From assembly GCA_043814255.1 (NCBI GenBank), contig JBDRKD010000103.1, forward strand, positions 6,499 through 38,498: 32,000 nucleotides of DNA, read 5' to 3'. Source of the DNA: Candidatus Micrarchaeota archaeon. Lineage in GTDB: Archaea > Micrarchaeota > Micrarchaeia > Burarchaeales > JAKAKT01. Both the position numbers and the translations under genes were made by a program. The stretch's first letter is position 1, and the number at the start of each line of letters is the position of its first letter. The notes under the pieces were generated by a model, which saw only the letters and a program-made list of their open reading frames with translations, searched no databases and was not told where the DNA came from. Positions 11,349-30,300 of this stretch are shown here, one piece after another.

Positions 11349-12290
11349 ATGAGGGTAACCCTGTTCGCGTTTGTTTTGCTTTCTGCGCACATCATAACTG
11401 CCTACGAGATAGGCGATATCAGGGAATTTGATTCAAGCGGGTTCTCAGAATATCCTGAAATAGAAGGGATCAGGCAAGACCTCCTGCTCTCGTTCTATTC
11501 TGTTGGCAGGGACAACCTGCCCCCAGGTTTCCCGGAATTTGCTGGCGCATCAGTTATCTTCATGACGCAGTTTGGGAAGGCCTATGACCTATCCTCCTCC
11601 GGAGAACAAACAGACCTCCTGCGCCTTCCGGAAACCCTAACGGATTTATCCTCATCTCTCCAGCGGATGGAAGGCCTTTCAAGGGACGAGATACTGCTCT
11701 CAAAACACAGCGCGTATCTGGCCAGGTCGTTGTTCGATAGGTATGTCCATGACGAAGCCCGGAAACTTAGGGGACTTGCGGAATCAGAGGCGCGTACGGC
11801 GCGGAAACTAGAATATTACCTAGCGGCCTCAGAACTCTTCGAGCGTTCTGGGGACAAGGTCAGCTCATCCGAGATGAGGGCGACATATGACAGCATAAAG
11901 GCAGCCTATGATGCAGACCTCGAGTCAGCGGATGCTATGTTTACTCAGGGGAAAACAACATGCAATGATGCAATTGAGGACATGGGGGCATGGTTCGGCC
12001 TTCCGGCGTATGCCCGTCTCAGGGAATGCACAGCAACCCTTTTCTCTGCCAGGGGAACATATGTTTCCCATCTGGAATACGAACGTATTGAGCAGTTGGA
12101 TTCGCATATGCTGGCAGCCACCGACACAATGGAAAAGCTCTCAGGCAGCGTGATGGTCCTTTTCGTTTTCGGTTCCATCCTGTTCATATCAATCAACGTC
12201 TTTCTCATATCCAGATTCAGAAGATGGCATGAGGACATCTATGATACATCACTAGGTACAGAGGTGCTCAGTTGGAAAGGAAACTCCTGA
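11349..12290 (+). CDS. Secreted, C-terminally membrane-anchored helical protein of unknown function
   Basis: 313 aa. Signal-like N-terminus MRVTLFAFVLLSAHIITA. The body is rich in Ala, Glu and Arg and looks helical. C-terminal TM VMVLFVFGSILFISINVFLI is followed by RFRRW. A TATA-like acatataata lies about 30 nt upstream of the ATG. Confidence 0.7.
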   Translation: MRVTLFAFVLLSAHIITAYEIGDIREFDSSGFSEYPEIEGIRQDLLLSFYSVGRDNLPPGFPEFAGASVIFMTQFGKAYDLSSSGEQTDLLRLPETLTDLSSSLQRMEGLSRDEILLSKHSAYLARSLFDRYVHDEARKLRGLAESEARTARKLEYYLAASELFERSGDKVSSSEMRATYDSIKAAYDADLESADAMFTQGKTTCNDAIEDMGAWFGLPAYARLRECTATLFSARGTYVSHLEYERIEQLDSHMLAATDTMEKLSGSVMVLFVFGSILFISINVFLISRFRRWHEDIYDTSLGTEVLSWKGNS

Positions 12291-14563
12291 TATTATCCAT
12301 AATCATTATGGCATCTTGCATTTCCCATGGCCAGATTGTGGTTGGAGAGGTACTGACCTATCCCGCCCTAGTAGTCGAATCAACCGAGAATGTTACTCTC
12401 TCATGGGGGACAAACGACCTTGCGCTCAGTTCAATCAACTGCACAGGCCCGGGAGTGGAGACATACCACGTTCAAGTCGAGACCGAGCCAACAGCGAACC
12501 ACGCATTCTTCCTGGAGACCAATTTCACAGGTGAAGGAATACTGGCATGCACAATCGTCACGTTCCCAATCAATGGGACATCAGTCACAAGGGACTACGA
12601 AATCCCCATCCATTGCGAAGGCGTCAGGCTGGAGCTTCTGAATCCATCAGTACGGGTAGCAGCTTATTTCACAAGGCCAAAAGGGACAGGGCATTATATG
12701 CTGAATACAACGATAAAAGTCAGGAACGCATGTGTTGGTCTGGCGATAGTTTCTGTATCATCGACCCCGCCAGGCGGGATGCAGATGGCCGTGAAGGCAG
12801 ACGACATCTACGGCCTCAATGTTAAGGACATGCCAGTGACGATAACAGTACCTGATTCAATGGATGAGGGAGTTTACCAGGGAACAGTGCGCTTTAGTGC
12901 AAACGGCAGTACCACTACATCGCTGGTAAACATTTCAGTCCATTGGCCAGGTCCAACAATCAGGGCGAAAATCGGCAAGGGTCCATCTGACATCAACCCA
13001 CTTGGGAACGTCAGGTCCGGAACGGATGTGGTGGAATACGTGGAGATTGAGGAAACAATGGGGTATAATGCCGCGAAGGATGTGGTATGTTCTGTGAAGT
13101 TCCAGGATAGGAACCAGGAACAGCAGGCAATAAGCATCGGTACAGTTAATCCATTTGGGAATGGGCGATGCTCATTTACAATGAACTTCCCAGACAGGAA
13201 TGTCCGCATAGGGAACTATTCCGTGTGGATAGCAATAACATCCAACAATTCAGGTGACCTCAACCTGGTGACAAATTACACAATACCTGTACCATACATC
13301 CTGTTTGCACCAACAACAATAGACCTTGGGAAGCTCACGTTCGATTCGGGAAAGGATTCGTCGAATTCAATCCTGACAATCATAGAGAACGGCGGGTTCA
13401 CCCCTATAGAGAACTTGAAATTCGAGCTTCTTGGCGGGAGTGAAGGATGGATATCCCTTCCATCATGCTACTATGTCCCACCAGGCGGAAGAATTAACTG
13501 CACGTTCAAGATATCGCTCAGCGATAATGCGAGCATAGGGCCGAAGGAATGGGTGATAGGCATAAGTTCAGAGTATATTCAGCCTGTTGAGCTTACAGCA
13601 AAGGTCGAAGTCTACTTCATAGGTGTCGAGGATGCTATCGCAACATTGGAGGCAATGTCTGTTTATTCCATAATGGACCAATTCATACAAGCGGAGACGG
13701 TGAAAACAAACACTGTAATGATGCTCGAGGGAATAAAAGAGAGTGATATCTCAATGGAGGACACTGCAATCATACTCTCAATGTATGGGGGCGTCGAGTC
13801 TCTGCTTGCCCAGACCGAAAGGGCCCGTGGAAATTTCTCATCAGGAGACCACCTTGGTGCTGGAAGGAACCTTCTTGTTTCCAGTATGGCACTCGAGAAG
13901 ATATCCTCCACTTACCGCTCCACAAAAGGGAACAGAACAGGTGCGTTACGTGATTTGGGAGAGGTCTACACCGCGAGCGCCTCCCTGTGGTCCGCCTCAT
14001 CCGAAGATGTTCTCAAGGTGCTTGAAGCCGAGGCAGTAGCAAGCGAGAAGGTCAGTTACAGGAGGGCAGCAGAGTATTACTCCCTGCTTGCAGACATATA
14101 CTGGCAGAGCAATGAAGACAAGTCCAAGGCGTTCTCACATAAGGCAGATACCCTGGGGAGTTTCTATTCAGACTCTGTCATAAGGGCTGGTGAAATCAAG
14201 CGCAATGCAGACAGGCTGTTCTCAATGGCACGCGAAGGGACAATCGAAGCCAGCGGGATGCACATAGTAATCAACCCATTCTCATATGACCGAACAATTG
14301 AAAACTACAGATTCGCATTGGCGGATTACGAGGCAGCATCCAAGCTTTACAAAAGCGCCGGACAGCAGAACGAGTTGAACATAATCCTCTCAACCCTTAG
14401 TGCAGCTGAGCAGGAATACGAATTCGTGGACAGGATGTTCATCCTTGGAGGGGTGGTCCTTTCGCTATTCCTCGTTCTTGTGATACTGCGCGTGACCGTC
14501 GGGATGCAGCGTTATAGGGAAGATGAGGAGGACATGGAGATAGGGAATGTGATGCTACATTAA
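12272..14563 (+). CDS. Large surface protein with an N-terminal beta-sandwich (CARDB/NEW3-like) region, a helical stalk and a C-terminal TM anchor
   Basis: 763 aa. A TTG start is inferred because it gives the signal-like ERKLLILSIIIMASCISHG; it overlaps the upstream gene by 19 nt. It has strand patterns such as VTITVPDSMDEGVYQGTVRFSANG and many sequons. The C-terminal roughly 250 aa look helical and resemble the 313-aa neighbour (ARKLEYYLAASELFERSG versus SYRRAAEYYSLLADIY). The anchor is MFILGGVVLSLFLVLVILRV followed by an acidic tail. Confidence 0.75.
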   Translation: MERKLLILSIIIMASCISHGQIVVGEVLTYPALVVESTENVTLSWGTNDLALSSINCTGPGVETYHVQVETEPTANHAFFLETNFTGEGILACTIVTFPINGTSVTRDYEIPIHCEGVRLELLNPSVRVAAYFTRPKGTGHYMLNTTIKVRNACVGLAIVSVSSTPPGGMQMAVKADDIYGLNVKDMPVTITVPDSMDEGVYQGTVRFSANGSTTTSLVNISVHWPGPTIRAKIGKGPSDINPLGNVRSGTDVVEYVEIEETMGYNAAKDVVCSVKFQDRNQEQQAISIGTVNPFGNGRCSFTMNFPDRNVRIGNYSVWIAITSNNSGDLNLVTNYTIPVPYILFAPTTIDLGKLTFDSGKDSSNSILTIIENGGFTPIENLKFELLGGSEGWISLPSCYYVPPGGRINCTFKISLSDNASIGPKEWVIGISSEYIQPVELTAKVEVYFIGVEDAIATLEAMSVYSIMDQFIQAETVKTNTVMMLEGIKESDISMEDTAIILSMYGGVESLLAQTERARGNFSSGDHLGAGRNLLVSSMALEKISSTYRSTKGNRTGALRDLGEVYTASASLWSASSEDVLKVLEAEAVASEKVSYRRAAEYYSLLADIYWQSNEDKSKAFSHKADTLGSFYSDSVIRAGEIKRNADRLFSMAREGTIEASGMHIVINPFSYDRTIENYRFALADYEAASKLYKSAGQQNELNIILSTLSAAEQEYEFVDRMFILGGVVLSLFLVLVILRVTVGMQRYREDEEDMEIGNVMLH

Positions 14564-17493: not shown

Positions 17494-17805
17494 GTGGTTA
17501 ATCTAAACGCAGTCGTGTATGCGGTATGTTTCGTGCTGTTCCTGGTAGGGATAGCGTTCATCTATTACCTCTCAAAAATCACACAGTACAATGAGGCATC
17601 AGAGAACAGAACAAGGCGGAGGATAGAGGATGTGGCATACTACCTCTCAAAGCTTGAGGAACACATCGAGGATGTGGAGGCACAGATTCATAAGAAAATA
17701 GACTCAAGTGAACTGGAGACAAGAATCAAGCTTACCACTTACGACCAAATAATCACGCGGGTTTCAAAACACACCAAGAAAAGCCGGAAGGCGGTGGCAC
17801 AATGA
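17494..17805 (+). CDS. Bitopic membrane protein: N-terminal TM plus coiled coil. It is a paralog of the N-terminal leader module of the next gene.
   Basis: 103 aa. GTG start with GGAGG 6 nt upstream. The TM is AVVYAVCFVLFLVGIAFIYYL. The coiled coil is RRIEDVAYYLSKLEEHIEDVEAQIHKKIDSSELETRIK. It ends in SRKAVAQ and has an ATGA overlap with the next gene. Confidence 0.65.
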   Translation: MVNLNAVVYAVCFVLFLVGIAFIYYLSKITQYNEASENRTRRRIEDVAYYLSKLEEHIEDVEAQIHKKIDSSELETRIKLTTYDQIITRVSKHTKKSRKAVAQ

Positions 17806-18524
17806 TTGAAGAACTTGAGATAGCACCACAATCACTCATACTTCTTGTAGTAACGGGACTGTTCCTATTCTGGCTCGTTCGCTATGCCGGGGGCCTGAGG
17901 AGGGAAGCGGAGTCTAAGAGGCTTGTGGTCGAGGAAGACATGGCTGACCTGGAGGATGTCTCAAGGAAGCTGGAGGAGAACATAGACGACCTGTACAAGC
18001 GTTTGGACAGCAAGGTTGATCAGGTGCACCTAGAATTAAAGCTCGAGGAGCTGGAGCGAAAGCGGGCAGAGCTCATTCGCAGTGCAATAGAGGCGAGGAA
18101 GAAAGCACAGGCATCCATCGAGCTGATGGCAATATTCACGCTGTTGCTCGTACCGATAGCTATCGGTTTCATGTATTCGTACACTGCAATCTCTGATTCA
18201 ATGAATTACAAGGCCGCTGTAGTTCTTGATCGCATCGGAGCAGTCGCGGAGAAGCTTTATGTCGAGGGTCCAGGGGCAAGTGCCCTGGTTTATGTGGACG
18301 TGCCTAGTGGAGTTGACCATGCCTCCTCATATATAGGGACCCCATCATCCGGAGAGGGAAGGTATCTTTCCATCAATCAATCAGGCTCCGAGTCTTTTCG
18401 CATATTGGATGCAACAGTAAGCGGGGAATGGCCAAACACCACGGGGGGAAAAGTTCGGCCAGGTTTCAGTGTATTTAATCTGACTGTCAATTCCTCTGGC
18501 ACTGTCAGGATTCAGTTAAGGTGA
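17802..18524 (+). CDS. Pilin-like protein with an internal class III signal motif preceded by a 102-aa TM plus coiled-coil leader
   Basis: 240 aa. The TM is SLILLVVTGLFLFWLV and the coiled coil is EEDMADLEDVSRKLEENIDDLYKRLDSKVDQVHLELKLEELERKRAEL. Then comes ARKKA|QASIELMAIFTLLLVPIAIGF (Q103 at 18108), which matches the DUF361-type QxSxExxxL prepilin motif. A roughly 115-aa beta-rich domain follows. Confidence 0.65.
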   Translation: MIEELEIAPQSLILLVVTGLFLFWLVRYAGGLRREAESKRLVVEEDMADLEDVSRKLEENIDDLYKRLDSKVDQVHLELKLEELERKRAELIRSAIEARKKAQASIELMAIFTLLLVPIAIGFMYSYTAISDSMNYKAAVVLDRIGAVAEKLYVEGPGASALVYVDVPSGVDHASSYIGTPSSGEGRYLSINQSGSESFRILDATVSGEWPNTTGGKVRPGFSVFNLTVNSSGTVRIQLR

Positions 18525-18907
18525 GGTTGTTGAGGGCCCAAATAGCACTTGAGTACATATTTGCGTTTCTTATGTGGATTATCATATGCACAATAACGGT
18601 ATTCATGATTAACCCATACGTCTCTGCCCTGTCGTCTGGGTTCACGACAATGTCATACTCCGCGACAATCCAAAAGCTAAACGAGATAGCTGCTTCTGAC
18701 CTTGATGGCATGAAGCACACACAGGTATATCACAAGATAAATAACACGCTGTCTTTCAACAACACTATTGTTGCGATACATACTACGGATGGGGAGGTAA
18801 TCATTGGGTCCCAACTTACCTATACATATGCGGACAATTTCAACCAGGGGGACAGGATGCTCATAAAGAATAACGGGGACGATATACTGGTCATACGGGT
18901 GGAATGA
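18521..18907 (+). CDS. Class III signal peptide (type IV pilin-like) protein
   Basis: 128 aa. GTG start overlapping the upstream stop (GTGA). The N-terminus MRLLRA|QIALEYIFAFLMWIIICTITVF fits the (K/R)(G/A)|Q..(S/A).E...hydrophobic prepilin pattern. Confidence 0.7.
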   Translation: MRLLRAQIALEYIFAFLMWIIICTITVFMINPYVSALSSGFTTMSYSATIQKLNEIAASDLDGMKHTQVYHKINNTLSFNNTIVAIHTTDGEVIIGSQLTYTYADNFNQGDRMLIKNNGDDILVIRVE

Positions 18908-19407
18908 TGAGGGGACAGGCTGCATCTATGGACCTAATCCTTTCGACAGTCCTCTTTGCGCTTTTGGCGTTTTCCATAATGTCATTTCTCCACACAGAGA
19001 TAAAGAGTGCTGATTCCAAGTTTCTTGATGAGAAGAGGGACCGCCTGACAAATTTCGCCGCCTATCAACTGATATTCCTCTCGGGACGTCCTGATAACTG
19101 GAACAGCTCAAACTGCGACCGCATAGGCCTGTCATGCTCCCAAGGTTCGCTATGCACAAGCAAGATATCTGAAATTGAGGCAATGTATTCATCAGACTAT
19201 AATGAAACGCGAAATCTGCTTAACCTGGTAGCATATGATGTATCGATCCACATCTGTTCAACGGGCAATTACTCGGATTGCGACTATAACTTTACGACTC
19301 AGGACAGGGAAGCGGATAGGGCAGCATCATCCTCCGTTTCAAGAGCAGAACTGGTTTCAACGCTAAACGGAGAACTCGTTTCAGTGATAGTCTATGCTTG
19401 GAGTTAA
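18904..19407 (+). CDS. Class III signal peptide (type IV pilin-like) protein, Cys-containing
   Basis: 167 aa with an ATGA overlap to the upstream gene. The N-terminus is MMRG|QAASMDLILSTVLFALLAFSIMSFL. The globular part has 6 Cys and several sequons. Confidence 0.65.
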   Translation: MMRGQAASMDLILSTVLFALLAFSIMSFLHTEIKSADSKFLDEKRDRLTNFAAYQLIFLSGRPDNWNSSNCDRIGLSCSQGSLCTSKISEIEAMYSSDYNETRNLLNLVAYDVSIHICSTGNYSDCDYNFTTQDREADRAASSSVSRAELVSTLNGELVSVIVYAWS

Positions 19408-19862
19408 CAATCAGAATAATAGATTGAATCGTAAACCCCATTCTCTGCGACAACCCTCAGGGTGTGGTAACCAGTTGAAAAGCTGCTCGTTGTATTGAAG
19501 CGGACGACATCATATGGTCCCCAAATTCCCACATCTGAATACAGTACCCACGTACCGTTGAGAATATCTATTGCCGCCACACTCACATACGTACTATCCA
19601 CGAATATGGCAGTCGTGTTCGCATCAAGATACGAATCCCCCGTGTTCTTTATATAGACATATGAGTATCCACCAATATAACATGGGTCGCTGATTATAGT
19701 TATATCAGTTTTTATCTGGTCTGAAAGAGTATCCGCTTTCTGGTTAAAGGCATTAGCCACACTACCGGCAGCTGCCGTCATAACACCAACAAGCCCAAGC
19801 GCGACTATTGCAGCTGCTATGAAAAAGATGGCCTGCGTTACGCTTGTTCCAAAACCCATCAA
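19404..19862 (-). CDS. FlaG/FlaF-family (ArlG-like) protein
   Basis: 152 aa. The N-terminus (M)MGFGTSVTQAIFFIAAAIVALGLVGV carries the MGF(S/G) hallmark of archaeal FlaF/FlaG. The beta-sandwich text is YVYIKNTGDSYLDANTTAIFVD...YHTLRVVAENGVYDSIYYSDC. The C-terminus is paralogous to the next gene. Confidence 0.65.
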   Translation of the reverse strand: MMGFGTSVTQAIFFIAAAIVALGLVGVMTAAAGSVANAFNQKADTLSDQIKTDITIISDPCYIGGYSYVYIKNTGDSYLDANTTAIFVDSTYVSVAAIDILNGTWVLYSDVGIWGPYDVVRFNTTSSFSTGYHTLRVVAENGVYDSIYYSDC

Positions 19863-19868
19863 TCACAC

Positions 19869-20858
19869 CTAAGAACAGTCATAAGTCCCATATGCAGATA
19901 TCCCGTCCTCAGTAACAACAGCTACTCTATGTTCGCTGTCAGCGCTACTCATATTCATATACGTTATATTAATACTTTTAGCTGGAGCCAGGATCCCAGT
20001 CACCGTACCATAACTAGTAACAGCATAACTTACATTCAGGTACGGATCCGAATTTAGGCCTAAAGAATCAGTTTGGTATATTAATACATATTTTCGTTCA
20101 TTAGCGCCAACGGCCCAATTCTCTATGAGCTCAAAATCAGTATCCCCCGTCTTACTTATGTACGCGCTCGGTACTGAGATGCTCTCCCACCCGGTTGTTT
20201 CCTCGTAATCCACACCGTCAAAATAAGTGCAACAGCCCCAGTCAGTTGTATCAAGCGTAACCCCTAAGACATCATTCCCATAGTAATAATCAACTCTCCA
20301 ACCAGAATCCAGTCCCGCGCTCTTTACAAATGAGGAGGACTTAGCATATAGTGTGGCACCTGTTACGCTTGCACCGTCCAGTAGGTCAGAAGTATCGAAA
20401 CTGAAGTATGAGCGGTACTCTATATTTGATGGGCCACTTCTATCCTCCCCTATGTAAGAGGTATCCCCAATTGAGGATACAAGATACTTAACACCATTGA
20501 AGCTTATGTGGCCATCCACCCCTGGGGTTGAATAAAAAGTAGTTGTATTAATTGTAGTCCCAGTGACGTTCTCCAGCACCTCATTATTATCGAGAAAATC
20601 CATCTTATCGAGCCTGAGCCCCACACTCCCCGTATTATTCAAAGCAATGGTTATGTTGTAGAGCGAACAATCCCCCTCAACCGTAATATTCTCAACATTC
20701 AGGGATGTTTGGTGCTGCTCCTTGTAGTTCTCGTTCTGAATCCGGAATGCATCCGAGATATCGTGCACACTTGATTCGATGATGGGATACGCTATAACCA
20801 AGGCTCCAGCTATCCCAAGCATAATCAATATCATGGCTATCGCAGTGCTGAATCCCAT
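19869..20858 (-). CDS. FlaF-like (ArlF-like) protein carrying an inserted DNRLRE-like beta-sandwich domain of about 170 aa
   Basis: 329 aa, roughly twice the typical FlaF length. It starts MGFSTAIAMILIMLGIAGALVIAY and has the core text YNITIALNNTGSVGLRLDKMDFLDNNEV...EHRVAVVTEDGISAYGTYDCS. Residues about 115-285 contain YRSYFSFDTSDLLDGASVTGATLYAK...WESISVPSAYISKTGDTDFEL...DPYLNVSYA. Confidence 0.6.
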   Translation of the reverse strand: MGFSTAIAMILIMLGIAGALVIAYPIIESSVHDISDAFRIQNENYKEQHQTSLNVENITVEGDCSLYNITIALNNTGSVGLRLDKMDFLDNNEVLENVTGTTINTTTFYSTPGVDGHISFNGVKYLVSSIGDTSYIGEDRSGPSNIEYRSYFSFDTSDLLDGASVTGATLYAKSSSFVKSAGLDSGWRVDYYYGNDVLGVTLDTTDWGCCTYFDGVDYEETTGWESISVPSAYISKTGDTDFELIENWAVGANERKYVLIYQTDSLGLNSDPYLNVSYAVTSYGTVTGILAPAKSINITYMNMSSADSEHRVAVVTEDGISAYGTYDCS

Positions 20859-20918
20859 TGCTAATCACAGGTATGATGTCTTCCCTCCTTAAATCATTTT
20901 CGGAGGAGTGCAGGGCAG

Positions 20919-21665
20919 CTAGAAGAACCTTGACATGAGCCTTGTCATGAAGCTTGGGGGGCGATATTGCACATCCGCAAGCGCGGCTCCGAACTTTTTC
21001 ATCTCAATGGAGTAATTAGTATGCGGCTTGTGATGCACCACCGGTCTCCCGTATTCAACACTATCCATTACGTTCTCGTCATAAGGCAGGATTCCCAACA
21101 CATCGTTCCCTATCCAGTCTTCAGCTTCCCTCTCAACCTTGCTCCAGTTTCTCCTCACCTTGTTGACCACAGTTCCAAGGACATCAATACCATACTTCTC
21201 CGCCACCTTTTTGGTTTTGAGCGTATTGGCGTAAGCGGTAATCTCTGGAGTTGTTATGAGCATAACCTTGTCCGCAAGCTTCAGGCTCTCTATAGTGTTC
21301 TCACCAAGCGTTCCAGGAGCATCCAGAAGTATGACATCCGCAATGCCTTCCATACTATCGACAATATCGTTTAGGTGCTTTGGTTTTACGGTGGACATGT
21401 CATCCACAGACAGGCTTGATGCAACCACCTTCACACCAGTCGGGTGTTGAAACACGGCATCACTGATATGAATCCCATCCAATACGACATCATGGAGCGT
21501 CTTTTTTGGGAACGGTGGCCCAAGAATGCAGCCCAAATCCCCATTTGTCAGATTCCCATCAAGAATCACGACATCAACCCCAAACTCAGAAAGCGCAATC
21601 CCTAGGTTTGCCACAAAATTGCTCTTACCAACCCCACCTTTTCCGGATGCAACAGTTATAATCAT
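20919..21665 (-). CDS. minD: MinD/ParA-family P-loop ATPase with a C-terminal amphipathic helix
   Basis: 248 aa. It has the deviant Walker A MIITVASGKGGVGKS and a Walker B-like VILLDAPG. The C-terminal SFMTRLMSRFF resembles a MinD membrane-targeting helix. Confidence 0.8.
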   Translation of the reverse strand: MIITVASGKGGVGKSNFVANLGIALSEFGVDVVILDGNLTNGDLGCILGPPFPKKTLHDVVLDGIHISDAVFQHPTGVKVVASSLSVDDMSTVKPKHLNDIVDSMEGIADVILLDAPGTLGENTIESLKLADKVMLITTPEITAYANTLKTKKVAEKYGIDVLGTVVNKVRRNWSKVEREAEDWIGNDVLGILPYDENVMDSVEYGRPVVHHKPHTNYSIEMKKFGAALADVQYRPPSFMTRLMSRFF

Positions 21666-21668
21666 CGC

Positions 21669-22145
21669 TCATCCCTCTCCCAATTTTTTTTTCATATTGT
21701 CCTTTAGATACACCCTTCTCTCCTCTCGGCTTAGTGAGTCAAAATCAACGTTCTCCCATGAATTTTCAGTATCGCCGTTTTGGAGTACATCATCCTCAAC
21801 GATGATAGCATTCTCGAGTTCCTTTATTGGATCAAAAGGCGCGTGTTTCTGAGTAGTGATTTCTTCCGTTACATCATCCTCCAAGACAGGTGCACTCTCA
21901 TCCAGAACAGTGATTTCCCCGCGCTTGACCTTCCAATAGTATTCCTTTTCAATCTCGAGTTCCGTTCCTATGACTTCAACAGGCAAACTGTATCCTAAAT
22001 CATTTATAGTGGAAAGGAAGTCTTCCCATTGCACATGGTCCCAATATCCATCCTGTACATTAACAAAGTCCTTAAGCAAGTTAGAGGACTTGAGCCTATC
22101 AAGTTCTGAAGCATCGAAAATCTGTTCACTCTGCCCACTCATCAT
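21669..22145 (-). CDS. Acidic cytoplasmic protein of unknown function, first gene of the MinD/FlaF/FlaG operon
   Basis: The track ORF starts at the TTG at 22169. I prefer the ATG at 22145 because GGAGG lies 5 nt upstream (TGGAGGCATATGATG). The protein is very rich in Asp and Glu with a basic C-terminal tail (RRVYLKDNMKKKLGEG). Its stop is 3 nt from the minD start. Confidence 0.55.
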   Translation of the reverse strand: MMSGQSEQIFDASELDRLKSSNLLKDFVNVQDGYWDHVQWEDFLSTINDLGYSLPVEVIGTELEIEKEYYWKVKRGEITVLDESAPVLEDDVTEEITTQKHAPFDPIKELENAIIVEDDVLQNGDTENSWENVDFDSLSREERRVYLKDNMKKKLGEG

Positions 22146-22435
22146 ATGCCTCCAAATCAAACTGGTCAATAAAATTTTAACACAGGGGGTATTTAAGCAT
22201 TTCCCTTTTTGGTGCTGTTAAGTCATTGTTGGTGGCAACGCCAACAAGCGGCAGCCAATTCGGGAGGCCGTTAGTGCCTTGGGGCACGGATCCGAACTGC
22301 TGCGTGCCATCCGTTACCAGTGTGAACGCTTTTAATCTGACACCTCATCAGCCGAAATTTCCAGCAAAGAACAAATATCCATCAACAAAAGCAAACATTT
22401 ATACCCGTGTCTCAATCATATACCTTAGTGGTCGA

Positions 22436-23377
22436 ATGTATCGAATGAGCGAAGGGCAAGTCCCAGATTTCCTCGATTATATCTCAAGGAATGTAGAACT
22501 GATAATACCATATAGGAAAGACGGGGTATCCTATTTCAAGAAGTACGAGCCAGGGGACAAGCCGTTTCTGGGGAAAGGGAACACAGATTATTCTGTGAAG
22601 CCGTTCTTCTTCCCATACAAGGACGCAATGTTCAAATATACGAAGGATGGGGATATCCAACACAAACCAGAGGCAAAAGAGCGGGTCATATTCGGAGTGC
22701 GCCCGTGCGACCTTCATGGAATATCAGTCACAGACATGTTCTTCTCAAACGACATAAAGGACCCACACTATATGGAACTGAGGGAGAAGACGATACTCAT
22801 CGCACTCGATTGCACAATACCTGGGAAGAATTGTTTCTGCGACTCGCTTGGGAAAAGGAACCCAATCGGCCATGACGTGGTTCTTTTCCATGTGGGAAAG
22901 CACTACTACGCCAGATCGGAAACCGACAGAGGGAGGGATTTGATAGAAGGCAGCGGTGTTTTCAAGGAAAGCGAAGACATCGAACAGCCAAAACGAAGCC
23001 CGTGTAAGAAGAGTGCGGCTCCTGTAGAAAACTCCAAAATCAAGTGGGAGAAATGGGGAAAGCAATGCTTCGGTTGCAGTGCCTGCACCGCGGTGTGCCC
23101 GACATGTGTATGCTTCGATGTGGAGGACGAGGTCCAACTAGATGGAAACGTGGAGCGCAACAGGCTCTGGGCATCGTGTTTCACAAAAGATTTCACAACA
23201 GTCGCGGGAAACCACTGTTTCAGGCTTTCTCACACCGAGATGCTCAAGCAATTCGTAAATCACAAGTTCTCCTATTTCGAGGATGAGTTCGGGGTCACGA
23301 TGTGCGTTGGTTGCGGGAGGTGCATAGGCGCCTGCACGGCGAAAATTGACATATCAAAAATAATAAGCGGGAAATAG
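22436..23377 (+). CDS. hydB: Sulfhydrogenase (group 3b NiFe hydrogenase) beta subunit, 4Fe-4S dicluster protein (AsrA-like)
   Basis: Cluster motifs CFGCSACTAVCPTCVC and CVGCGRCIGAC are present. The N-terminus MYRMSEGQVPDFLDYISRNVELIIPY...KPFFFPYKD resembles HydB. The start is set at 22436 (alternative 22445) because a TATA atttatac sits at 22397..22404. The track start at 22226 adds 70 codons that do not look like protein. Confidence 0.75.
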   Translation: MYRMSEGQVPDFLDYISRNVELIIPYRKDGVSYFKKYEPGDKPFLGKGNTDYSVKPFFFPYKDAMFKYTKDGDIQHKPEAKERVIFGVRPCDLHGISVTDMFFSNDIKDPHYMELREKTILIALDCTIPGKNCFCDSLGKRNPIGHDVVLFHVGKHYYARSETDRGRDLIEGSGVFKESEDIEQPKRSPCKKSAAPVENSKIKWEKWGKQCFGCSACTAVCPTCVCFDVEDEVQLDGNVERNRLWASCFTKDFTTVAGNHCFRLSHTEMLKQFVNHKFSYFEDEFGVTMCVGCGRCIGACTAKIDISKIISGK

Positions 23378-23385
23378 GTGTACCA

Positions 23386-24177
23386 ATGGACGATCCATAC
23401 ATTCCAAAAAAATCAAGGATTCTGAAAATAACTGATGAGACCCAGGACATAAAGACATTTCACATAGAGAACATAATAGGTCAATATTCCCCGGGCCAAT
23501 TCGTAGAGCTTACTGTTTGGGGTGTTGGGGAGGCTCCGATATCCATCTCAAGTTCCGAAGGGGACCTAATCCTAACTGTGAAGAAGATAGGTTCTGTTAC
23601 AGATGCATTGTTCAGGCTGAGAGAGGGCGATACAATTGGCATCAGGGGTCCGTATGGGAGCGGTTGGCCAATCCATCTGCTCAAAGACAAGAGCGTGATA
23701 GTCATCTGCGGAGGAGTCGGACTTCCTCCTCTGAGGCCAGTCATACACCACGTGATGAACTTGGGGCGAAAAGCCATACTCTGTTATGGGGCAAGAAGCC
23801 CCGAGGACATGGTGTACAGGGATGAACTCGAACATTGGAAGACGCAGGGAATCGACGTGAGGACGACTGTTGACACATGCGGTATGGGGTGGAAGGGAAA
23901 TGTCGGGGTAGTGACATGCATAATGGAGACTGCAATAAAGAAGGACGAAGGCGCAATATGCATGCTCTGCGGCCCACCGATAATGATGAAATTTGCCACA
24001 AAATTACTGTTCGATACGGGATTCAAAAAGAACCAGATATACGTTTCACTGGAACGGATGATGAAATGCGGGGTCGGGAAATGCTGCCATTGCATGGCTG
24101 GTGGGAAATTTGTTTGCAAGCACGGGCCAGTGTTCCGGCTCGATGAAATCGAGAACCTTCCAGAGAGGTTGTTGTGA
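23386..24177 (+). CDS. hydG: Sulfhydrogenase gamma subunit (FAD/NAD(P)-binding, 2Fe-2S; AsrB/PyrK-like)
   Basis: 263 aa. Motifs seen are GVGEAPISISS, the nucleotide-binding VIVICGGVGLPPLRPV, and the C-terminal MKCGVGKCCHCMAGGKFVCKHGPVF cluster motif. Confidence 0.8.
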   Translation: MDDPYIPKKSRILKITDETQDIKTFHIENIIGQYSPGQFVELTVWGVGEAPISISSSEGDLILTVKKIGSVTDALFRLREGDTIGIRGPYGSGWPIHLLKDKSVIVICGGVGLPPLRPVIHHVMNLGRKAILCYGARSPEDMVYRDELEHWKTQGIDVRTTVDTCGMGWKGNVGVVTCIMETAIKKDEGAICMLCGPPIMMKFATKLLFDTGFKKNQIYVSLERMMKCGVGKCCHCMAGGKFVCKHGPVFRLDEIENLPERLL

Positions 24178-24178
24178 C

Positions 24179-24934
24179 ATGGAAAAGAAGAAAGTAGCCA
24201 TATTCAGCCTAACTTGCTGCGCAGGATGCCAGCTTGAGATACTGGATAATCCAGAACTTTTGGATATGCTGAAATACATTGAAATAGTGAAATTCCCAAT
24301 AGCCATAGCGCGCAACGAGCCAGGACCATATGATATAGTTTTTGTTGAGGGCATGGTCACAACCCCAGAGGAGATAGTAATAGTGAAGAGCATTAGGAAG
24401 AGCACGAAACACCTCATAGCCATCGGTGCCTGCGCAACATATGGTGGAGTCCCGACAATAAGGAACTCCATCCCGCAACGCGAGGCCGAGGCAGCGGCCT
24501 ATGGGGAGAACACGCAGCACATCCTGTCAATAAAACCATCAGGGGTTTCCGAATACGTTAAGGTCGATTACCTAATCCACGGATGCCCGATCAGCAAGGA
24601 TGAGTTTTCATCGGTTGTAAAGGCTCTCCTCGCAGGGAAATACCCAAAGCCCCACACACATTCGGTTTGCATGGAATGCAAAGCAAAGGGAAACAAATGC
24701 CTGTTCCCAGAGGACATATGCATGGGTCCGATAACGCATGGGGGATGCGGAGCCCCATGCCCATCCAACGGGGTGGCGTGTTTCAGTTGCCGCGGCCCGA
24801 AAGAGGATGCCAATGTTGAGGAATTTGTTTCCCTCGCGAAAAAGCAGGGCTATTCTGATGCAGAGATAAGGCGGCTCCTCGGAAAGTTTGCATGCACTGC
24901 AAAACAATACAAAAAAATATCTGGAGTAGATTGA
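24179..24934 (+). CDS. hydD: NiFe hydrogenase small (delta) subunit
   Basis: The ATG at 24179 lies 1 nt after the hydG stop. The N-terminus MEKKKVAIFSLTCCAGCQLEILD is the typical small-subunit proximal cluster motif. Further Cys motifs are GCPISKDE, CMECKAKGNKC and GGCGAPCPSNGVACFSCRGP. The track start at 24101 is an upstream alternative-codon artefact. Confidence 0.85.
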   Translation: MEKKKVAIFSLTCCAGCQLEILDNPELLDMLKYIEIVKFPIAIARNEPGPYDIVFVEGMVTTPEEIVIVKSIRKSTKHLIAIGACATYGGVPTIRNSIPQREAEAAAYGENTQHILSIKPSGVSEYVKVDYLIHGCPISKDEFSSVVKALLAGKYPKPHTHSVCMECKAKGNKCLFPEDICMGPITHGGCGAPCPSNGVACFSCRGPKEDANVEEFVSLAKKQGYSDAEIRRLLGKFACTAKQYKKISGVD

Positions 24935-26209
24935 ATGGTCTTGATAAAACTCGATCACATAACAAAAATAGAGGGACACGGAAGCCTACACGTCCAAGTC
25001 GAGGAAGGGGAAGTCAAGGAAGTTCAGATGGGGGCAGTGGAAGGGGCAAGGTTCTTTGAGGCAGTCGTGAAGGGCAGGGAGTTCCACGAGATTCCAACAC
25101 TAACCTCTCCAATATGCGGCATATGCAGCCAAGCCCACGTTCTCGCATCCATAAGTGCAATAGAGTGCGCCACTGGGATAGAGCCTTCACACCAGACAGT
25201 TCTTATGCGTGAGTTGCTCAACATAGGGCAGTATGTACAGAGCCACAATGTACACACCCACTTCCTTGTGCTCCCGGATTACTTTGGCTATGGGGACGCA
25301 ATAGCGATGATGGATAAGCACGAAGATGTCGTTAAAAGGGCACTTAAATTCAAGCGTTGGGCGAGTTCATTCTGCACATTGGTGGGCGGCAGGGATATGC
25401 ATCCGGTGTGCGCGCAGGTCGGCGGGTTCTCACACATCCCGGACAAGGGCAAGCTCAGCGATATGATCTCCACACTCAAGGAGCTTCGGCCCGAAGCAAT
25501 GAAGATAGCTGAGATTTTCGGTTCGTTGAAATATCCTGATTTTGAGAGAAAGAAGGACTACGCATCCCTCATCCAGGAAAATAAGTACCCCTTGATAAGC
25601 GGAGACGTAACAATAGGGCAGACGCGATTCAGCCCAAGTGAATATCTTGATAATGTCTCCGAATCCACAAAAGCATATTCTCCGAGCAAATACTCGCTTT
25701 TCAAAGGAAAGAGTTTCATGGTTGGGTCACTTGCTCGCATTAATAACAACCTGCCAAACCTCTCGGACAATGCAAAGGTTGCGATTGCCCATTCAGAAAT
25801 AACCTTCCCAAACAATAATCCATTCACAAACAATTTCGCTCAAGCGGTTGAGATAGTGCATTGCGTTGACCGCGCCATAGACATACTGGAAAACCACCGT
25901 CTCAAACGTGAGCAATGGATCCACCCAAGGAAGCTCAAGATCCAGAACGGAAGAGGGGTAGGGGCCGTTGAGGCCCCGAGAGGAACGCTCTATCATGATT
26001 ACACCATATCAAAGGGAATCATCCAGTCTGCCAATATAATCACCCCGACAGTTCAGAACCTAAACTGTTTGGAGGATGATGTGCGCGCTTATCTCCCGAA
26101 GATACTTGACAGTGATGAGAAAACAGTAGTTGCCGAACTCGAGAAACTTGTTCGCGCTTACGACCCATGCTGCTCATGTTCGGTCCACTATCTGGATGTC
26201 CGCAGATAA
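24935..26209 (+). CDS. hydA: NiFe hydrogenase large (alpha) subunit, group 3b type
   Basis: 424 aa. It has the N-terminal KIEGHG motif, the L1 nickel-binding motif PICGICSQAH, and the C-terminal DPCCSCSVH followed by a short YLDVRR tail (the protease substrate). Its ATG abuts the hydD stop (TGAATG). Confidence 0.9.
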   Translation: MVLIKLDHITKIEGHGSLHVQVEEGEVKEVQMGAVEGARFFEAVVKGREFHEIPTLTSPICGICSQAHVLASISAIECATGIEPSHQTVLMRELLNIGQYVQSHNVHTHFLVLPDYFGYGDAIAMMDKHEDVVKRALKFKRWASSFCTLVGGRDMHPVCAQVGGFSHIPDKGKLSDMISTLKELRPEAMKIAEIFGSLKYPDFERKKDYASLIQENKYPLISGDVTIGQTRFSPSEYLDNVSESTKAYSPSKYSLFKGKSFMVGSLARINNNLPNLSDNAKVAIAHSEITFPNNNPFTNNFAQAVEIVHCVDRAIDILENHRLKREQWIHPRKLKIQNGRGVGAVEAPRGTLYHDYTISKGIIQSANIITPTVQNLNCLEDDVRAYLPKILDSDEKTVVAELEKLVRAYDPCCSCSVHYLDVRR

Positions 26210-26633: not shown

Positions 26634-27722
26634 GTGAGGATATTTGCTATTATGTTGGTTATCGCGGTGTTGTTCTCCCCCTGTTTCTCAGAGGCAAGGG
26701 AATTGCCGGCAATACTCAGCGACTTTACACAAGAGACACTGGTAGTTATGAACTGTAAGACTACTCAGCCAGGCGGTTCTGAAATGGTGGACATATCCAT
26801 AAACGTGGATAACCCCCTGCCAGTGCAGATGAAAGTGAGCTTTACATACCTGGACATGGCAACAGGCCTCTATGAAGAACAGCCAATAAACCAATACTGC
26901 TACATAGGCCCACACCTCTCACTGCCCTGCAAATTCAAGATGCCCATACGACTCGGTGGAAGGGCCAATGGAACCATCTCAAACGCGGAGCTCATGCGAC
27001 TCAAAGGGGTTGACCCACAGGGAACCAGAACAGAGACCTATACCAAGTCATTCTGGTTTAACATCGAACACGAGGAATCGCTCCCAGAGATAAATGCAAT
27101 GAACAAGATAGTTGCTGCCGAGGAGCTTATTTCAGAAACAGATTCAGGGATACCCTGTTTTGGTTCTGTCTGCTGCGGAATGGGTGGAGCAAACGATAAC
27201 ATCGAGCTAGCCAAGCTCGACGTTTCAAAGGCCAAAGAGCAACTGAGACTATGCAATATCACAGGTGCATATTCCCTAGCTTCCTCTGCAGTTGCCAAGG
27301 CACAGAATGCAGGTTCTTACCTATCATCAAACACACTGCCATGCACAGACATACTGCTTGAATACAAGGAAGCAAAGACTGCCGTGGACGAGGCGGAAGC
27401 GCACCTCTCAAATCTCGACTGTGACGTCGATCAAACACTGACAGAGGCACTGAGCAACGCAAGAGGAAAGCTAATGAATTCAAAATCGAAGATAGGTTCA
27501 GATGAATACGAGTTGGCAAGCCTTGAGATCCAGGGAGCAAGAAACGCTGCCGAATCAATCAAAGAGGCAGGATGCACGCCTGACGGGAAAATCGACACAA
27601 GCAACGGCACCGATTCGAACGTAACATCGGGGGATGGCGTTTCTTCGGAAGATGATGCCAAACCATGCCCTGCGTTTCTCCTGCCATTGATACTCGCGGC
27701 GTTCGCGTATACAAAGCGATAG
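26634..27722 (+). CDS. Secreted Cys-rich surface protein with a helical region and a PGF-CTERM-like C-terminal anchor
   Basis: 362 aa, GTG start. The signal peptide is MRIFAIMLVIAVLFSPCFSEA. It has more than 15 Cys. A Ser/Asp/Gly-rich linker (GTDSNVTSGDGVSSEDDAK) leads to PCPAFLLPLILAAFAYTKR at the extreme C-terminus. Confidence 0.7.
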   Translation: MRIFAIMLVIAVLFSPCFSEARELPAILSDFTQETLVVMNCKTTQPGGSEMVDISINVDNPLPVQMKVSFTYLDMATGLYEEQPINQYCYIGPHLSLPCKFKMPIRLGGRANGTISNAELMRLKGVDPQGTRTETYTKSFWFNIEHEESLPEINAMNKIVAAEELISETDSGIPCFGSVCCGMGGANDNIELAKLDVSKAKEQLRLCNITGAYSLASSAVAKAQNAGSYLSSNTLPCTDILLEYKEAKTAVDEAEAHLSNLDCDVDQTLTEALSNARGKLMNSKSKIGSDEYELASLEIQGARNAAESIKEAGCTPDGKIDTSNGTDSNVTSGDGVSSEDDAKPCPAFLLPLILAAFAYTKR

Positions 27723-28737: not shown

Positions 28738-30300
28738 TCATTTTACACGCCCCATACAGTATATGTCTGGCCCCAAACAACCTTCTTTCTCTAGTTGCGA
28801 AACCATCCAACCTAGGACTCTGTTCCTCAACTGCATATATTTCTCCCTCCCAAATTCTACGTTCCCTATGGCATACCTCTTGTTCTTTGCGTTGAAGCAG
28901 AACATACAATTGCTAAGATTCTCGCAGTTATGGCAGAACATGGAATCCCTGCAATTCGAGCAGCCATCCATCTCGAAACATTTTACCAGGTTTGCTGAGT
29001 GATAGCAGTTGAGACAGAATCCACAATCGATAATCCAGAAAGAGCCGAACACGTATTCTGAGTTGAAGACCTGGCCGGAGATTCCAGAGTTTTTCCCAAA
29101 GTTTGAGTCTACAACCTTGTAGATGTTAACCGAATTCTCAGAGAGCGGACTTCCGATTACGTTTTGACAACCACCCGCAATTATCTCAGGCGAATAATAT
29201 GCGATCTTCTCTATTTTCTTGAGTATCACGCTTAAGTTCAACTCCTCAGTCTCAGACAAGTCAATCCTTAGCTTCCCGAGCTCGAGCGCCTCCTCGTTGG
29301 TTACAAAACGGCTCTCATGGATGCCCCGCATAAATGGAAAAGATGAGAACGGCGGATAGGTCTCTCTTCCGAACGGAGTTTTTCTCCTTCCCACCGTGGC
29401 AGTATGTTTGCTAAGCCATTTCTCAAACCTTGTTATTGGACCAAGATTCGCCCCCAATGTTATCCTGCCCGCTGTGTTGAATGCCTTGTCTATCCTGTCC
29501 ATCCTCTGTTCATCAGTTCTTTCTTTAACATTTATCTCCGGAGGTGCTTCTGTCCTTCCAGGTAGATTGAATATATTCGGCAGTTTTTTGTCCTTAACAA
29601 GTTTTTCCCTAATCTCTTCGAGAAGTTTGTTCCTTATCCTGAAATACCTGTCCTTTTCGAGCGGCAAGTTTCCTATAACATACCTTGCCCCCCTCTGGTT
29701 TAGCGAGAACATGTTGTGTGTGCAACCGAGGCAATTGTAGGAGAAGTAAGTATCGCTTGTGTCAGCGACGTAATAAGCCTCGAAGCACCTGGTCGAATTA
29801 TACGAGACAGTCTTTATCATGTGCCTCGCCTTTCCACTTGTGCTCGATCCGAAAACATACTCGCTGTCCCTCACCATCCAGGAGTAAGCGATGTACTTCG
29901 ACTGCTTGATGTTAGTGCTTCCCACCACATAGAAGCTGTCCATGCACACATCAACATCATTTACGAACCCCGACTCGCCGAGCACCCTGTTCCCAGTGTA
30001 CAATACTCTGTCGTCAATCGCGTTGAGAAGGCTGTCGATATCCTTTATCTCGTTTATGTTCAGCGGCTTAAATTCCCCCTCAATTATCTCATCCTGGGAG
30101 ATGAACTTCGCCTCCCCGCAGTGCTCGTCTGTCAGCAGGGTTATGTCCTTTCCCGAGATCCAAGATTTCTTTTTCGATACAGGGCGGAAGTACTCTGTCA
30201 GGTACTCCCTGAAGTTCTCAAGTCGCACTTCCCCATCACCCTTCCCCAGCAGCATTTTGAAGGTGCGTTGAAACGCTGAGTCTACATCCATATCAATCAA
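28738..30300 (-). CDS. Internally duplicated protein of unknown function with a C-terminal cysteine ladder
   Basis: 520 aa. Two homologous halves are offset by about 268 aa: DSEYVFGSS...RGARYVIGNLPLEKDRYFRIRNKLL and NSEYVFGSF...NKRYAIGNVEFGREKYMQLRNRVL. Residues 426-468 carry 10 Cys with C-x2-C-x5 periodicity (CGFCLNCYHSANLVKCFEMDGCSNCRDSMFCHNCENLSNCMFC). Confidence 0.6.
   Translation of the reverse strand: MIDMDVDSAFQRTFKMLLGKGDGEVRLENFREYLTEYFRPVSKKKSWISGKDITLLTDEHCGEAKFISQDEIIEGEFKPLNINEIKDIDSLLNAIDDRVLYTGNRVLGESGFVNDVDVCMDSFYVVGSTNIKQSKYIAYSWMVRDSEYVFGSSTSGKARHMIKTVSYNSTRCFEAYYVADTSDTYFSYNCLGCTHNMFSLNQRGARYVIGNLPLEKDRYFRIRNKLLEEIREKLVKDKKLPNIFNLPGRTEAPPEINVKERTDEQRMDRIDKAFNTAGRITLGANLGPITRFEKWLSKHTATVGRRKTPFGRETYPPFSSFPFMRGIHESRFVTNEEALELGKLRIDLSETEELNLSVILKKIEKIAYYSPEIIAGGCQNVIGSPLSENSVNIYKVVDSNFGKNSGISGQVFNSEYVFGSFWIIDCGFCLNCYHSANLVKCFEMDGCSNCRDSMFCHNCENLSNCMFCFNAKNKRYAIGNVEFGREKYMQLRNRVLGWMVSQLEKEGCLGPDIYCMGRVK

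Follow-up and report, generated by a model that had tools for sequence, protein, structure and literature searches.

ArlF and ArlG (FlaF and FlaG) anchor the rotating motor of the archaellum to the S-layer; to our knowledge, these stator proteins are regarded as specific to the archaellum and are otherwise known only from this archaeal swimming motor. The present analysis concerns a window, i.e. a stretch of 32,000 nucleotides, from the metagenome-assembled genome (MAG) of a very small, symbiotic Candidatus Micrarchaeota archaeon (contig JBDRKD010000103.1, locus tags ABIG39_). In this window an ArlF-like and an ArlG-like gene form an operon with genes for a MinD ATPase and an acidic protein, and this operon converges on a second one, which encodes pilin-like proteins and putative coiled-coil membrane proteins. 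Makarova, Koonin & Albers (2016, PMC4858521) have described archaeal type IV pilus (T4P) loci with FleN/MinD ATPases (arCOG00589), several minor pilins, additional membrane proteins, large adhesins and KaiC-like ATPases. For Micrarchaeota, T4P have been reported, and no archaellum genes (PMC5498576, PMC8561730). All the sequence evidence discussed below comes from uncultured MAGs; the loci fetched for comparison are indicated by L numbers.

The genes are here named A to D on the plus strand and, on the minus strand, H, G (MinD), F (ArlF-like) and E (ArlG-like). F and E resemble the archaellum stator genes (4p94, 4zbh, 5tuh, 5tug) in their F-then-G order, in encoding a predicted uncleaved helix plus a beta-sandwich, and in giving significant profile matches. 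Unlike those genes, they are neither followed by arlH/I/J nor preceded by archaellins or arlC-E, and they are operonic with MinD and the acidic protein. Only the F- and G-like genes of a canonical archaellum locus are present, whereas true arl operons are found in L030, L031 and L033; arlH, arlI and arlJ were found neither in the window nor in six syntenic loci. The locus is not an archaellum, but probably an incomplete, dispersed member of the archaeal T4P group, with an apparently borrowed stator pair. Its eight genes rather probably supply the envelope and regulatory parts of a Tad/Epd-like T4P machine, whose motor, major pilin, peptidase and platform would be encoded elsewhere in the genome. 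The motor of such a machine would, with the same moderate confidence, consist of a FlaI/TadA-family ATPase and a KaiC-like ATPase.

E (19404-19859/62, minus strand, 151/152 aa) matches the NCBIfam ArlG model (NF052591; arCOG01822) with 86.1 bits and an E-value of 2e-24, for a curated cut-off of 110, and the Pfam family PF01917 (Arch_flagellin) with 70.9 bits, above the gathering score of 29.5. An AF2 model, built on an alignment of 81 sequences (pLDDT 88.5), features a helix at residues 3-50 and eight strands arranged in a beta-sandwich. When this model was compared to known structures by using Foldseek, matches were obtained with an archaellin (9eq7, TM-score 0.74) and with the soluble domains of S. 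acidocaldarius FlaF (4p94) and FlaG (5tuh), while the best match in a PDB sequence search was an archaellin N-terminus, at an E-value of 0.019. An initial reading of the window, made from the sequence alone (the sequence-only reading), had called E FlaG-like, and the profile and structure matches uphold this assignment. The protein begins with MGFGTSV, entering a hydrophobic helix at once, with no basic leader and no [KR]G site, and is predicted to remain uncleaved; Cys61 and the C-terminal Cys152 are invariant. Thirteen further orthologous clusters, of 152 aa, were collected, and a metagenome scan with the E alignment detected three loci only, two from the same clade and one consisting of a 32%-identical fragment. 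The best relatives outside the subclade are 35-41% identical over the full length and are located inside canonical arlF-arlG-arlH-arlI-arlJ operons, in Woesearchaeota, Thermoplasmata-like archaea and others; a stand-alone E-like gene, 44% identical, is present in L029. In the window E is preceded by the arlF-like gene, and the operon ends at E, converging on the pilin operon.

F (19869-20858, minus strand, 329 aa) matches, with its residues 1-105, positions 1-102 of the 137 of the NCBIfam ArlF model (NF052590; arCOG01824), at 71.2 bits and an E-value of 9e-20, the cut-off of 110 not being reached. Its N-terminal part is homologous to E (hhalign 95%), and the protein begins with MGFS, again entering a hydrophobic helix at once, with neither a basic leader nor a [KR]G site. 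The core is made up of residues 1 to ~100 and ~290-329. The segment in between (residues ~100-288, nt ~19995-20561, ~190 aa) is identified as an insertion because the L005 ortholog, of 145 aa, does not contain it and has the N-terminal part joined straight to the last ~40 residues. The FlaF-like assignment of the sequence-only reading is thus supported by the profile match, but did not take into account this inserted domain, by which F differs from canonical ArlF. The insert resembles the NF033679 model (DNRLRE_dom) in 5/5 orthologs, with E-values from 1e-5 to 3e-4, all below the cut-off. Both ends of a hidden Markov model (HMM) of the F family, N- and C-terminal, find a match in the canonical ArlF proteins of L031 and L032; it is only through this family HMM that the C-terminal strands of F can be aligned to canonical ArlF. 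The AF2 model of F, obtained from a three-sequence alignment, was unusable (pLDDT 36.6), a PDB sequence search with F returned no match, and a homolog search detected three proteins only among 5.8 billion. E and F each contain a conserved cysteine pair, with one residue near the start of the sandwich and the other at the C-terminus, as would fit an extracellular location. Judged by their profiles, E and F are descendants of the ArlF/ArlG stator family.

In L032, an unassigned metagenome contig, a gene for a 302-aa protein with an N-terminal transmembrane (TM) segment (492-1400) is located between the ArlF-like gene and ArlG of a canonical arl operon. It was evaluated as a possible relative of the enlarged F and discarded, since no significant similarity was found. 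Extra or enlarged envelope proteins around stator genes may have more than one origin.

The motor genes were sought in the window and in related genomes. Domain searches over the other ORFs of the window, seven of which have no Pfam match, revealed neither a T2SSE ATPase nor a T2SSF platform nor an A24 peptidase, in agreement with the earlier remark that assembly ATPase, platform protein and prepilin peptidase are absent. In a Micrarchaeia MAG (L009/L034), H and MinD share their strand with the next three genes, for a DUF2085 protein, a T2SSE ATPase and a KaiC-like ATPase, and no gap exceeds 33 nt. For the T2SSE ATPase, of 597 aa, the FlaI model gives 258 bits, its cut-off being 550, and the TadA family is second-best. 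Several small genes with class III signals are located downstream of the ATPase-KaiC pair; one of them, a stand-alone pilin of L009, matches positions 104-192 of B (E 7e-4). In L035, where 5669 ORFs were searched and E-values ranged from 4e-4 to 1e-44, an ortholog of the L009 ATPase, 60% identical, is followed by a KaiC-like gene and then by homologs of A, B, C and D, in this order. The first of these, the A homolog (18.9 bits, E 4e-4), immediately follows the ATPase-KaiC pair. B is represented by two proteins, one of 106 aa, matching positions 1-85 of the B HMM with 54.6 bits, and one of 167 aa, matching positions 91-239 with 150.7 bits and starting with a signal of its own, KFKG/QVSMEML. The C and D homologs are found at colinear positions, with 20.5 bits (E 1e-4) and 40.2 bits (E 9e-11), respectively. 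H-MinD being operonic with the ATPase-KaiC pair in L009, and the A-D homologs likewise in L035, both operons of the window are independently tied to the same motor. In the sister assembly GCA_964649265.1 the module is located on contig 60 (L002) and the ATPase-KaiC pair on contig 6 (L025), beside glycosylation genes. The sequence-only reading had taken the locus for a filament module in its own right; given the linked motor genes of L009, L035 and the sister genome, this view was abandoned in favour of an accessory part of a dispersed T4P system.

No TadC-type platform gene was found in the ATPase loci L009, L023, L025 and L035. A 590-aa multi-TM protein of L025 was considered as a TadC candidate and set aside; by TM count and sequence, no family search being run, it looks like a membrane protein of the glycosyltransferase/oligosaccharyltransferase type. 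The DUF2085 membrane protein between MinD and the T4P ATPase is located at 8768-9406 in L009 and at 9330-9968 in L034.

The four genes of the plus operon had been described as coding for a TM plus coiled-coil protein and three proteins with class III prepilin signals. A (17494-17805, 103 aa) is a bitopic membrane protein, with an N-terminal TM segment at aa 6-24 and a charged helical part, predicted to be cytoplasmic, whose composition and heptad pattern suggest a coiled coil. It is a paralog of the N-terminal part of B (hhalign probability 92%, E 5e-7), and its orthologs in L001-L005 are 55-61% identical. In B (17802-18524, 240 aa), residues 1-98 correspond to an A-like TM segment and putative cytoplasmic coiled coil, residues 99-125 to an internal class III-type signal, RKKA/QASIEL, with the motif at about residue 100, and a hydrophobic helix, and residues 126-240 (~115) to a pilin-like domain, predicted to be extracellular. 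Because the two halves are separate adjacent genes in L035, the B gene of the window is best described, from sequence comparison, as the product of a fusion between two adjacent genes, one for a TM/coiled-coil protein and one for a pilin. A gene-calling artefact was rejected, as the fusion is intact in five orthologs; KKAQxS[IV]E is kept in 5/5 fused B orthologs. The three signal motifs of the earlier description are therefore present, but the one in B is internal to a fusion protein.

C (18521-18907, 128 aa, signal MRLLRA/QIALEY), with orthologs in L001-L005 and L027, and D (18904-19407, 167 aa, signal MMRG/QAASMD), containing five cysteines and four N-glycosylation sequons, are candidate minor pilins. 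D orthologs are 52-58% identical, and a homolog in L007 scores 39.7 bits (E 1e-10). The signal motifs in B, C and D are matched by a regular expression, [KR][GA]-Q/T..-E/D followed by an 18-residue hydrophobic stretch, which has no other match in the window, where 263 six-frame ORFs with a length of 50 aa or more were scanned. On the Pfam model PF04021 (Class_IIIsignal, gathering score 23.7), C reaches 18.3 bits (E 0.002); its L002 ortholog, with 12.8 bits, and a short L009 pilin, with 22.9 bits, are also sub-threshold. Family-to-family hhalign comparisons revealed that the C-terminal part of B, C and D have only the signal in common; they are not paralogs of one another, nor are they paralogs of E or F. 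Searches of the window and of L002, L023 and L025 yielded no small major pilin.

G (20919-21665, minus strand, 248 aa) is an ATPase of the archaeal MinD/FleN family (arCOG00589), with a deviant Walker A motif, SGKGGVGKS, at residues 7-15. Its score on TIGR01969 (minD_arch), 205.3 bits, exceeds the cut-off of 201.75. Among solved structures it is closest to A. fulgidus MinD-1 (1hyq, E 2e-41) and Pyrococcus MinD (1g3q, 1ion), then to FleN, its closest non-archaeal solved relative. The C-terminus, SFMTRLMSRFF, is amphipathic, with a hydrophobic moment of 0.64, and this feature is kept in L001-L009; both the MinD identity and the terminal amphipathic helix, proposed from the sequence alone, were thus substantiated. 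A MinD scan of GTDB species genomes detected G orthologs, 59-89% identical, on 12 Micrarchaeota contigs. In L010-L013, the source of the most distant Micrarchaeota orthologs, a short, strongly basic tail (e.g. AGRRKKLK) replaces the amphipathic helix of MinD, and H is cut to ~100 aa; these changes point to another way of binding the membrane or the partner.

H (21669-22145, minus strand, ~158 aa) is located directly upstream of MinD in L001-L006 and L009-L013. As expected for the acidic protein of the sequence-only reading, it has a pI of 4.2, with 38 acidic and 16 basic residues, and no TM segment. From the N- to the C-terminus, it consists of a conserved domain of ~60 aa, an acidic linker that varies, and a basic tail that is again conserved, FDxL..EER..KKK[LI]. 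Pfam and NCBIfam profile searches gave no family match for H. An exhaustive search with H detected its N-terminal domain (L..LK.S..L..FV...G.W) in 61 representative clusters, none of them named, and the domain appears, from this search, to be an undescribed small one. Up to five repeats of it are present in some proteins, and in others it is fused to TIR, HEAT or zinc-ribbon domains, which provide no functional lead; one member derives from a Planctomycetota MAG.

Bacterial Tad systems, with TadZ/CpaE, and flagellar systems, with FlhG/FleN, offer a comparison for this pair, since these ATPases are thought to place or license the machine, and in L009 MinD lies upstream of the secretion ATPase, as in the tadZ-tadA order. 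TadZ has a receiver-like N-domain, which G lacks. G differs from these proteins in being of the archaeal MinD type, with its own C-terminal amphipathic helix, and those systems contain nothing equivalent to H. Haloferax volcanii MinD4 is an archaeal MinD homolog controlling the placement of a type IV filament machine, a role here proposed for G; MinD4 differs in not being encoded in an operon with arl genes, and its targets are a canonical archaellum and chemosensory arrays.

Conservation of the eight-gene arrangement in relatives had been set beforehand as a test, and it is observed in at least five further genomes or contigs. The full module, with A-D converging on H-MinD-F-E, is found in L001/L004, L002, L003 and L005, and in partial form on the short metagenome contigs L027 and L026. 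Its fast-evolving genes show 37-70% identity across syntenic loci. Synteny in this subclade mostly extends to the flanking PAC2 and hydrogenase genes, while only the H-MinD pair is kept in more distant Micrarchaeota (L006, L009-L013). The possibility that the locus is the tail of a canonical arl operon on its contig, raised at the outset, was dismissed; in the 32,000 nucleotides of the contig that the window covers, no arl genes are present besides the F- and G-like ones.

The eight ORFs, in two convergent operons, lie where the sequence-only reading had placed them, and F and E show 100% identity to ABIG39_06385 and ABIG39_06380, respectively, encoded on a contig of 38.5 kb. Hydropathy analysis predicts one TM segment each in A, C, D, E and F, two in B and none in H. 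The start-stop overlaps of the plus operon were verified at all three junctions: ATGA at 17802-17805 (A/B), GTGA at 18521-18524 (B/C) and ATGA at 18904-18907 (C/D). On the minus strand, the stop codon of H is found 3 nt before the ATG of MinD. The start of H itself is most likely, from its sequence context, the ATG at 22145, which follows a GGAGG, and not an upstream TTG; H orthologs begin at an equivalent MSGQ. The TTAA shared by D and E, to which the stop codons of both operons had been ascribed, is real (19404-19407): the TAA of the plus strand is at 19405-19407, and that of the minus strand is the reverse complement of 19404-19406. A functional role for it was nevertheless rejected, because the TTAA is not kept in relatives, where the operon ends are from 1 to ~570 nt apart, and its sharing is incidental.

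A possible mode of action may be outlined for these components. A prepilin peptidase encoded elsewhere would act on C and D at their class III signals, and probably on B at its internal signal, and the resulting three minor pilins would prime or cap a filament, like EpdA-C and bacterial minor pilins. A and the N-terminal part of B would be bitopic, and their coiled coils, placed in the cytoplasm by the positive-inside rule upon inspection of the sequences, could scaffold the ATPase/KaiC motor at the membrane. The ArlG-like E and the ArlF-like F, anchored by uncleaved helices, would form a pseudo-periplasmic post tying the machine to the S-layer, in which the DNRLRE-like insert of F would probably bind the wall or glycans; the pulling or torsional load would be borne by the S-layer. 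MinD would dimerise on ATP, bind the membrane through its C-terminal amphipathic helix and, together with H, decide the site or number of assembled machines, as TadZ/CpaE, FlhG/FleN and Haloferax MinD4 do. ATPases of the ParA/MinD type are stimulated by partner peptides, those of MinE and ParB being examples, and the basic tail of H is a candidate for such a peptide.

Several points weigh against assigning the eight genes to a dispersed T4P machine. All functional roles are assigned by analogy, and neither E nor F reaches its NCBIfam equivalog cut-off. That B, C and D are called pilins depends on a short motif and on gene context, because the Class_IIIsignal model, which spans 27 residues, stays sub-threshold. 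The two operons are adjacent in one subclade only, and since the flanking genes are syntenic there as well, this adjacency is weak evidence, which alone proves little. Moreover, a TadC/ArlJ platform, a prepilin peptidase and a small major pilin were absent from every fetched locus examined, and for this reason the machine is incompletely reconstructed.

Other explanations of the locus were therefore considered. E and F could be displaced genes of an ordinary archaellum, with arlB, arlC-E, arlH, arlI and arlJ elsewhere in the genome; MinD-H would position this archaellum, and A-D would belong to a separate pilus. The canonical F-then-G order would be accounted for in this way, as would the finding that the nearest out-of-clade relatives of E are all in canonical arl operons. 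In addition, archaella are positioned by MinD4 in Haloferax (bioRxiv 10.1101/2020.04.03.021790), and the cultivated micrarchaeon ARM-1 has thin filaments, presented in the text as possible archaeal pili, one density of which is labelled archaellum in a supplementary legend of the preprint. Such a displacement is, however, judged unlikely: in published genome analyses of Micrarchaeota, T4P are reported and archaellum genes are not (PMC5498576, PMC8561730), no arl gene is found within ~10 kb in 6/6 syntenic loci, H-MinD of L009 is operonic with an ATPase which is not ArlI, as its score on the FlaI model indicates, and the A-D homologs of L035 are operonic with an ortholog of this same ATPase. 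The separate links of each operon to one ATPase-KaiC pair, in L009 and in L035, also speak against the operons being unrelated neighbours, i.e. a minor-pilin set beside a MinD positioning or division system equipped with two S-layer-associated archaellin-fold proteins. The convergent adjacency limited to one closely related subclade, with conserved flanks, would be expected in such a case, and so would the lack of conservation of the common TTAA stop and the persistence of H-MinD alone in more distant relatives. FlaG/FlaF/PilA-family proteins are, besides, widespread as generic pilins, but reciprocal profile tests define E as specifically ArlG-like and F as specifically ArlF-like, and a chance association of the two operons is held to be improbable.

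E, F or both could also be filament subunits, similar to archaellins, with B, C and D as minor partners, in which case the locus would hold a complete filament set minus the motor. ArlG of S. acidocaldarius reportedly polymerises, the full-length model of E is closest to archaellin subunits, as seen in the match to 9eq7, and no small major pilin was found in the window. Against this, the MGFG and MGFS starts lack the basic leader and [KR]G site, unlike those of B, C and D, and the major pilins of clade-1 archaeal T4P are typically encoded by stand-alone genes elsewhere in the genome (PMC4858521); this explanation is considered very unlikely.

The dispersed T4P machine with a stator-derived anchor, preferred here, can be placed among the described systems. 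It shares with clade-1/Epd-type and other archaeal T4P that have a FleN/MinD ATPase (PMC4858521; Methanococcus EpdA-E) the Q-x-x-x-E signal motifs, a row of minor-pilin-like genes, a MinD/FleN gene in or near the locus, the KaiC-like ATPases accompanying the secretion ATPase and the large LamG-type surface proteins nearby. Unlike the described archaeal T4P, it is split over at least two loci in the module subclade, ArlF/ArlG orthologs belong to it, MinD has an acidic partner that is conserved, and a minor pilin is fused to a TM/coiled-coil protein; no TadC is seen beside the ATPase. The sequence-only reading had not recognised a MinD-FlaF-FlaG operon beside pilins as a known system. No account of a MinD-ArlF-ArlG operon was indeed found, but MinD beside archaeal pilins is known (PMC4858521), and the MinD-plus-pilin theme is not new. 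No published description was found of ArlF/ArlG orthologs operonic with MinD outside an archaellum locus, of the H partner, of the fused pilin B or of the F insert. In a supplementary table of PMC5498576, two FlaF-family genes are reported for a nanohaloarchaeon (B1-Br10_U2g1) without FlaB, FlaG, FlaH and FlaJ; orphan stator-family genes in DPANN archaea therefore have an unremarked precedent.

The module is flanked in the window by genes for a PAC2 protein, a four-subunit NiFe hydrogenase, secreted C-terminally anchored proteins and a giant LamG/beta-helix protein; no tRNA and no Rfam family were detected in the window. The giant protein corresponds to one open frame of at least 3467 aa (2-10402, minus strand), which runs off the left end of the window and contains Laminin_G_3 and right-handed beta-helix domains, consistent with a putative giant surface adhesin. 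Comparable giants are a 1627-aa LamG plus VWA protein, downstream of the L035 T4P operon, and a 3647-aa one, near the orphan ArlG-like gene of L029; LamG-like (DUF2341) proteins have been placed at pilus tips (Makarova 2016, PMC4858521). The hydrogenase cluster (22226-26209, plus strand), found beside the module in L001-L003 as well, includes four genes, for a 4Fe-4S dicluster protein, an FAD/NAD-binding protein, and the small and large subunits, a notable metabolic equipment for a DPANN archaeon. Three proteins of 313, 763 and 362 aa, encoded at 11349-14563 and 26634-27722 (plus strand), feature a signal-like N-terminal helix, long helices and a C-terminal hydrophobic anchor; they have no Pfam match and are possible S-layer or envelope proteins, as judged from this layout. 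A comparable protein, of 619 aa, is present in the L009 T4P locus. Finally, a 520-aa protein with no family match (28738-30300, minus strand) contains repeated, CxxC-like cysteine pairs in its C-terminal region.

A more far-reaching proposal, regarded as doubtful, is that an archaellum-like, load-bearing or rotating machine is assembled here from non-archaellum parts: a T4P ATPase other than ArlI, a KaiC-like (ArlH-like) partner, A and the N-terminal part of B as ArlX-like TM/coiled-coil scaffold proteins, Epd-type pilins with Q-x-x-x-E signals and a recruited ArlF/ArlG stator, with MinD and its acidic partner determining the placement. If true, the machine would stand, in evolution, between pilus and archaellum, or else an ectosymbiont would have independently put the stator to use again for attachment to its host. 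Apart from this proposal, the locus provides three items which can be tested: a candidate archaeal MinD partner, a pilin placed behind a membrane-anchored, putative coiled-coil pro-region of 100 residues, and a DNRLRE-like ArlF insert as a possible wall-binding module. The presence of ArlF/ArlG homologs in a phylum reported to be without archaella would suggest that the stator, or anchor, can serve other type IV filaments, and bears on the origin of the archaellum from pili and on how DPANN ectosymbionts hold their hosts.

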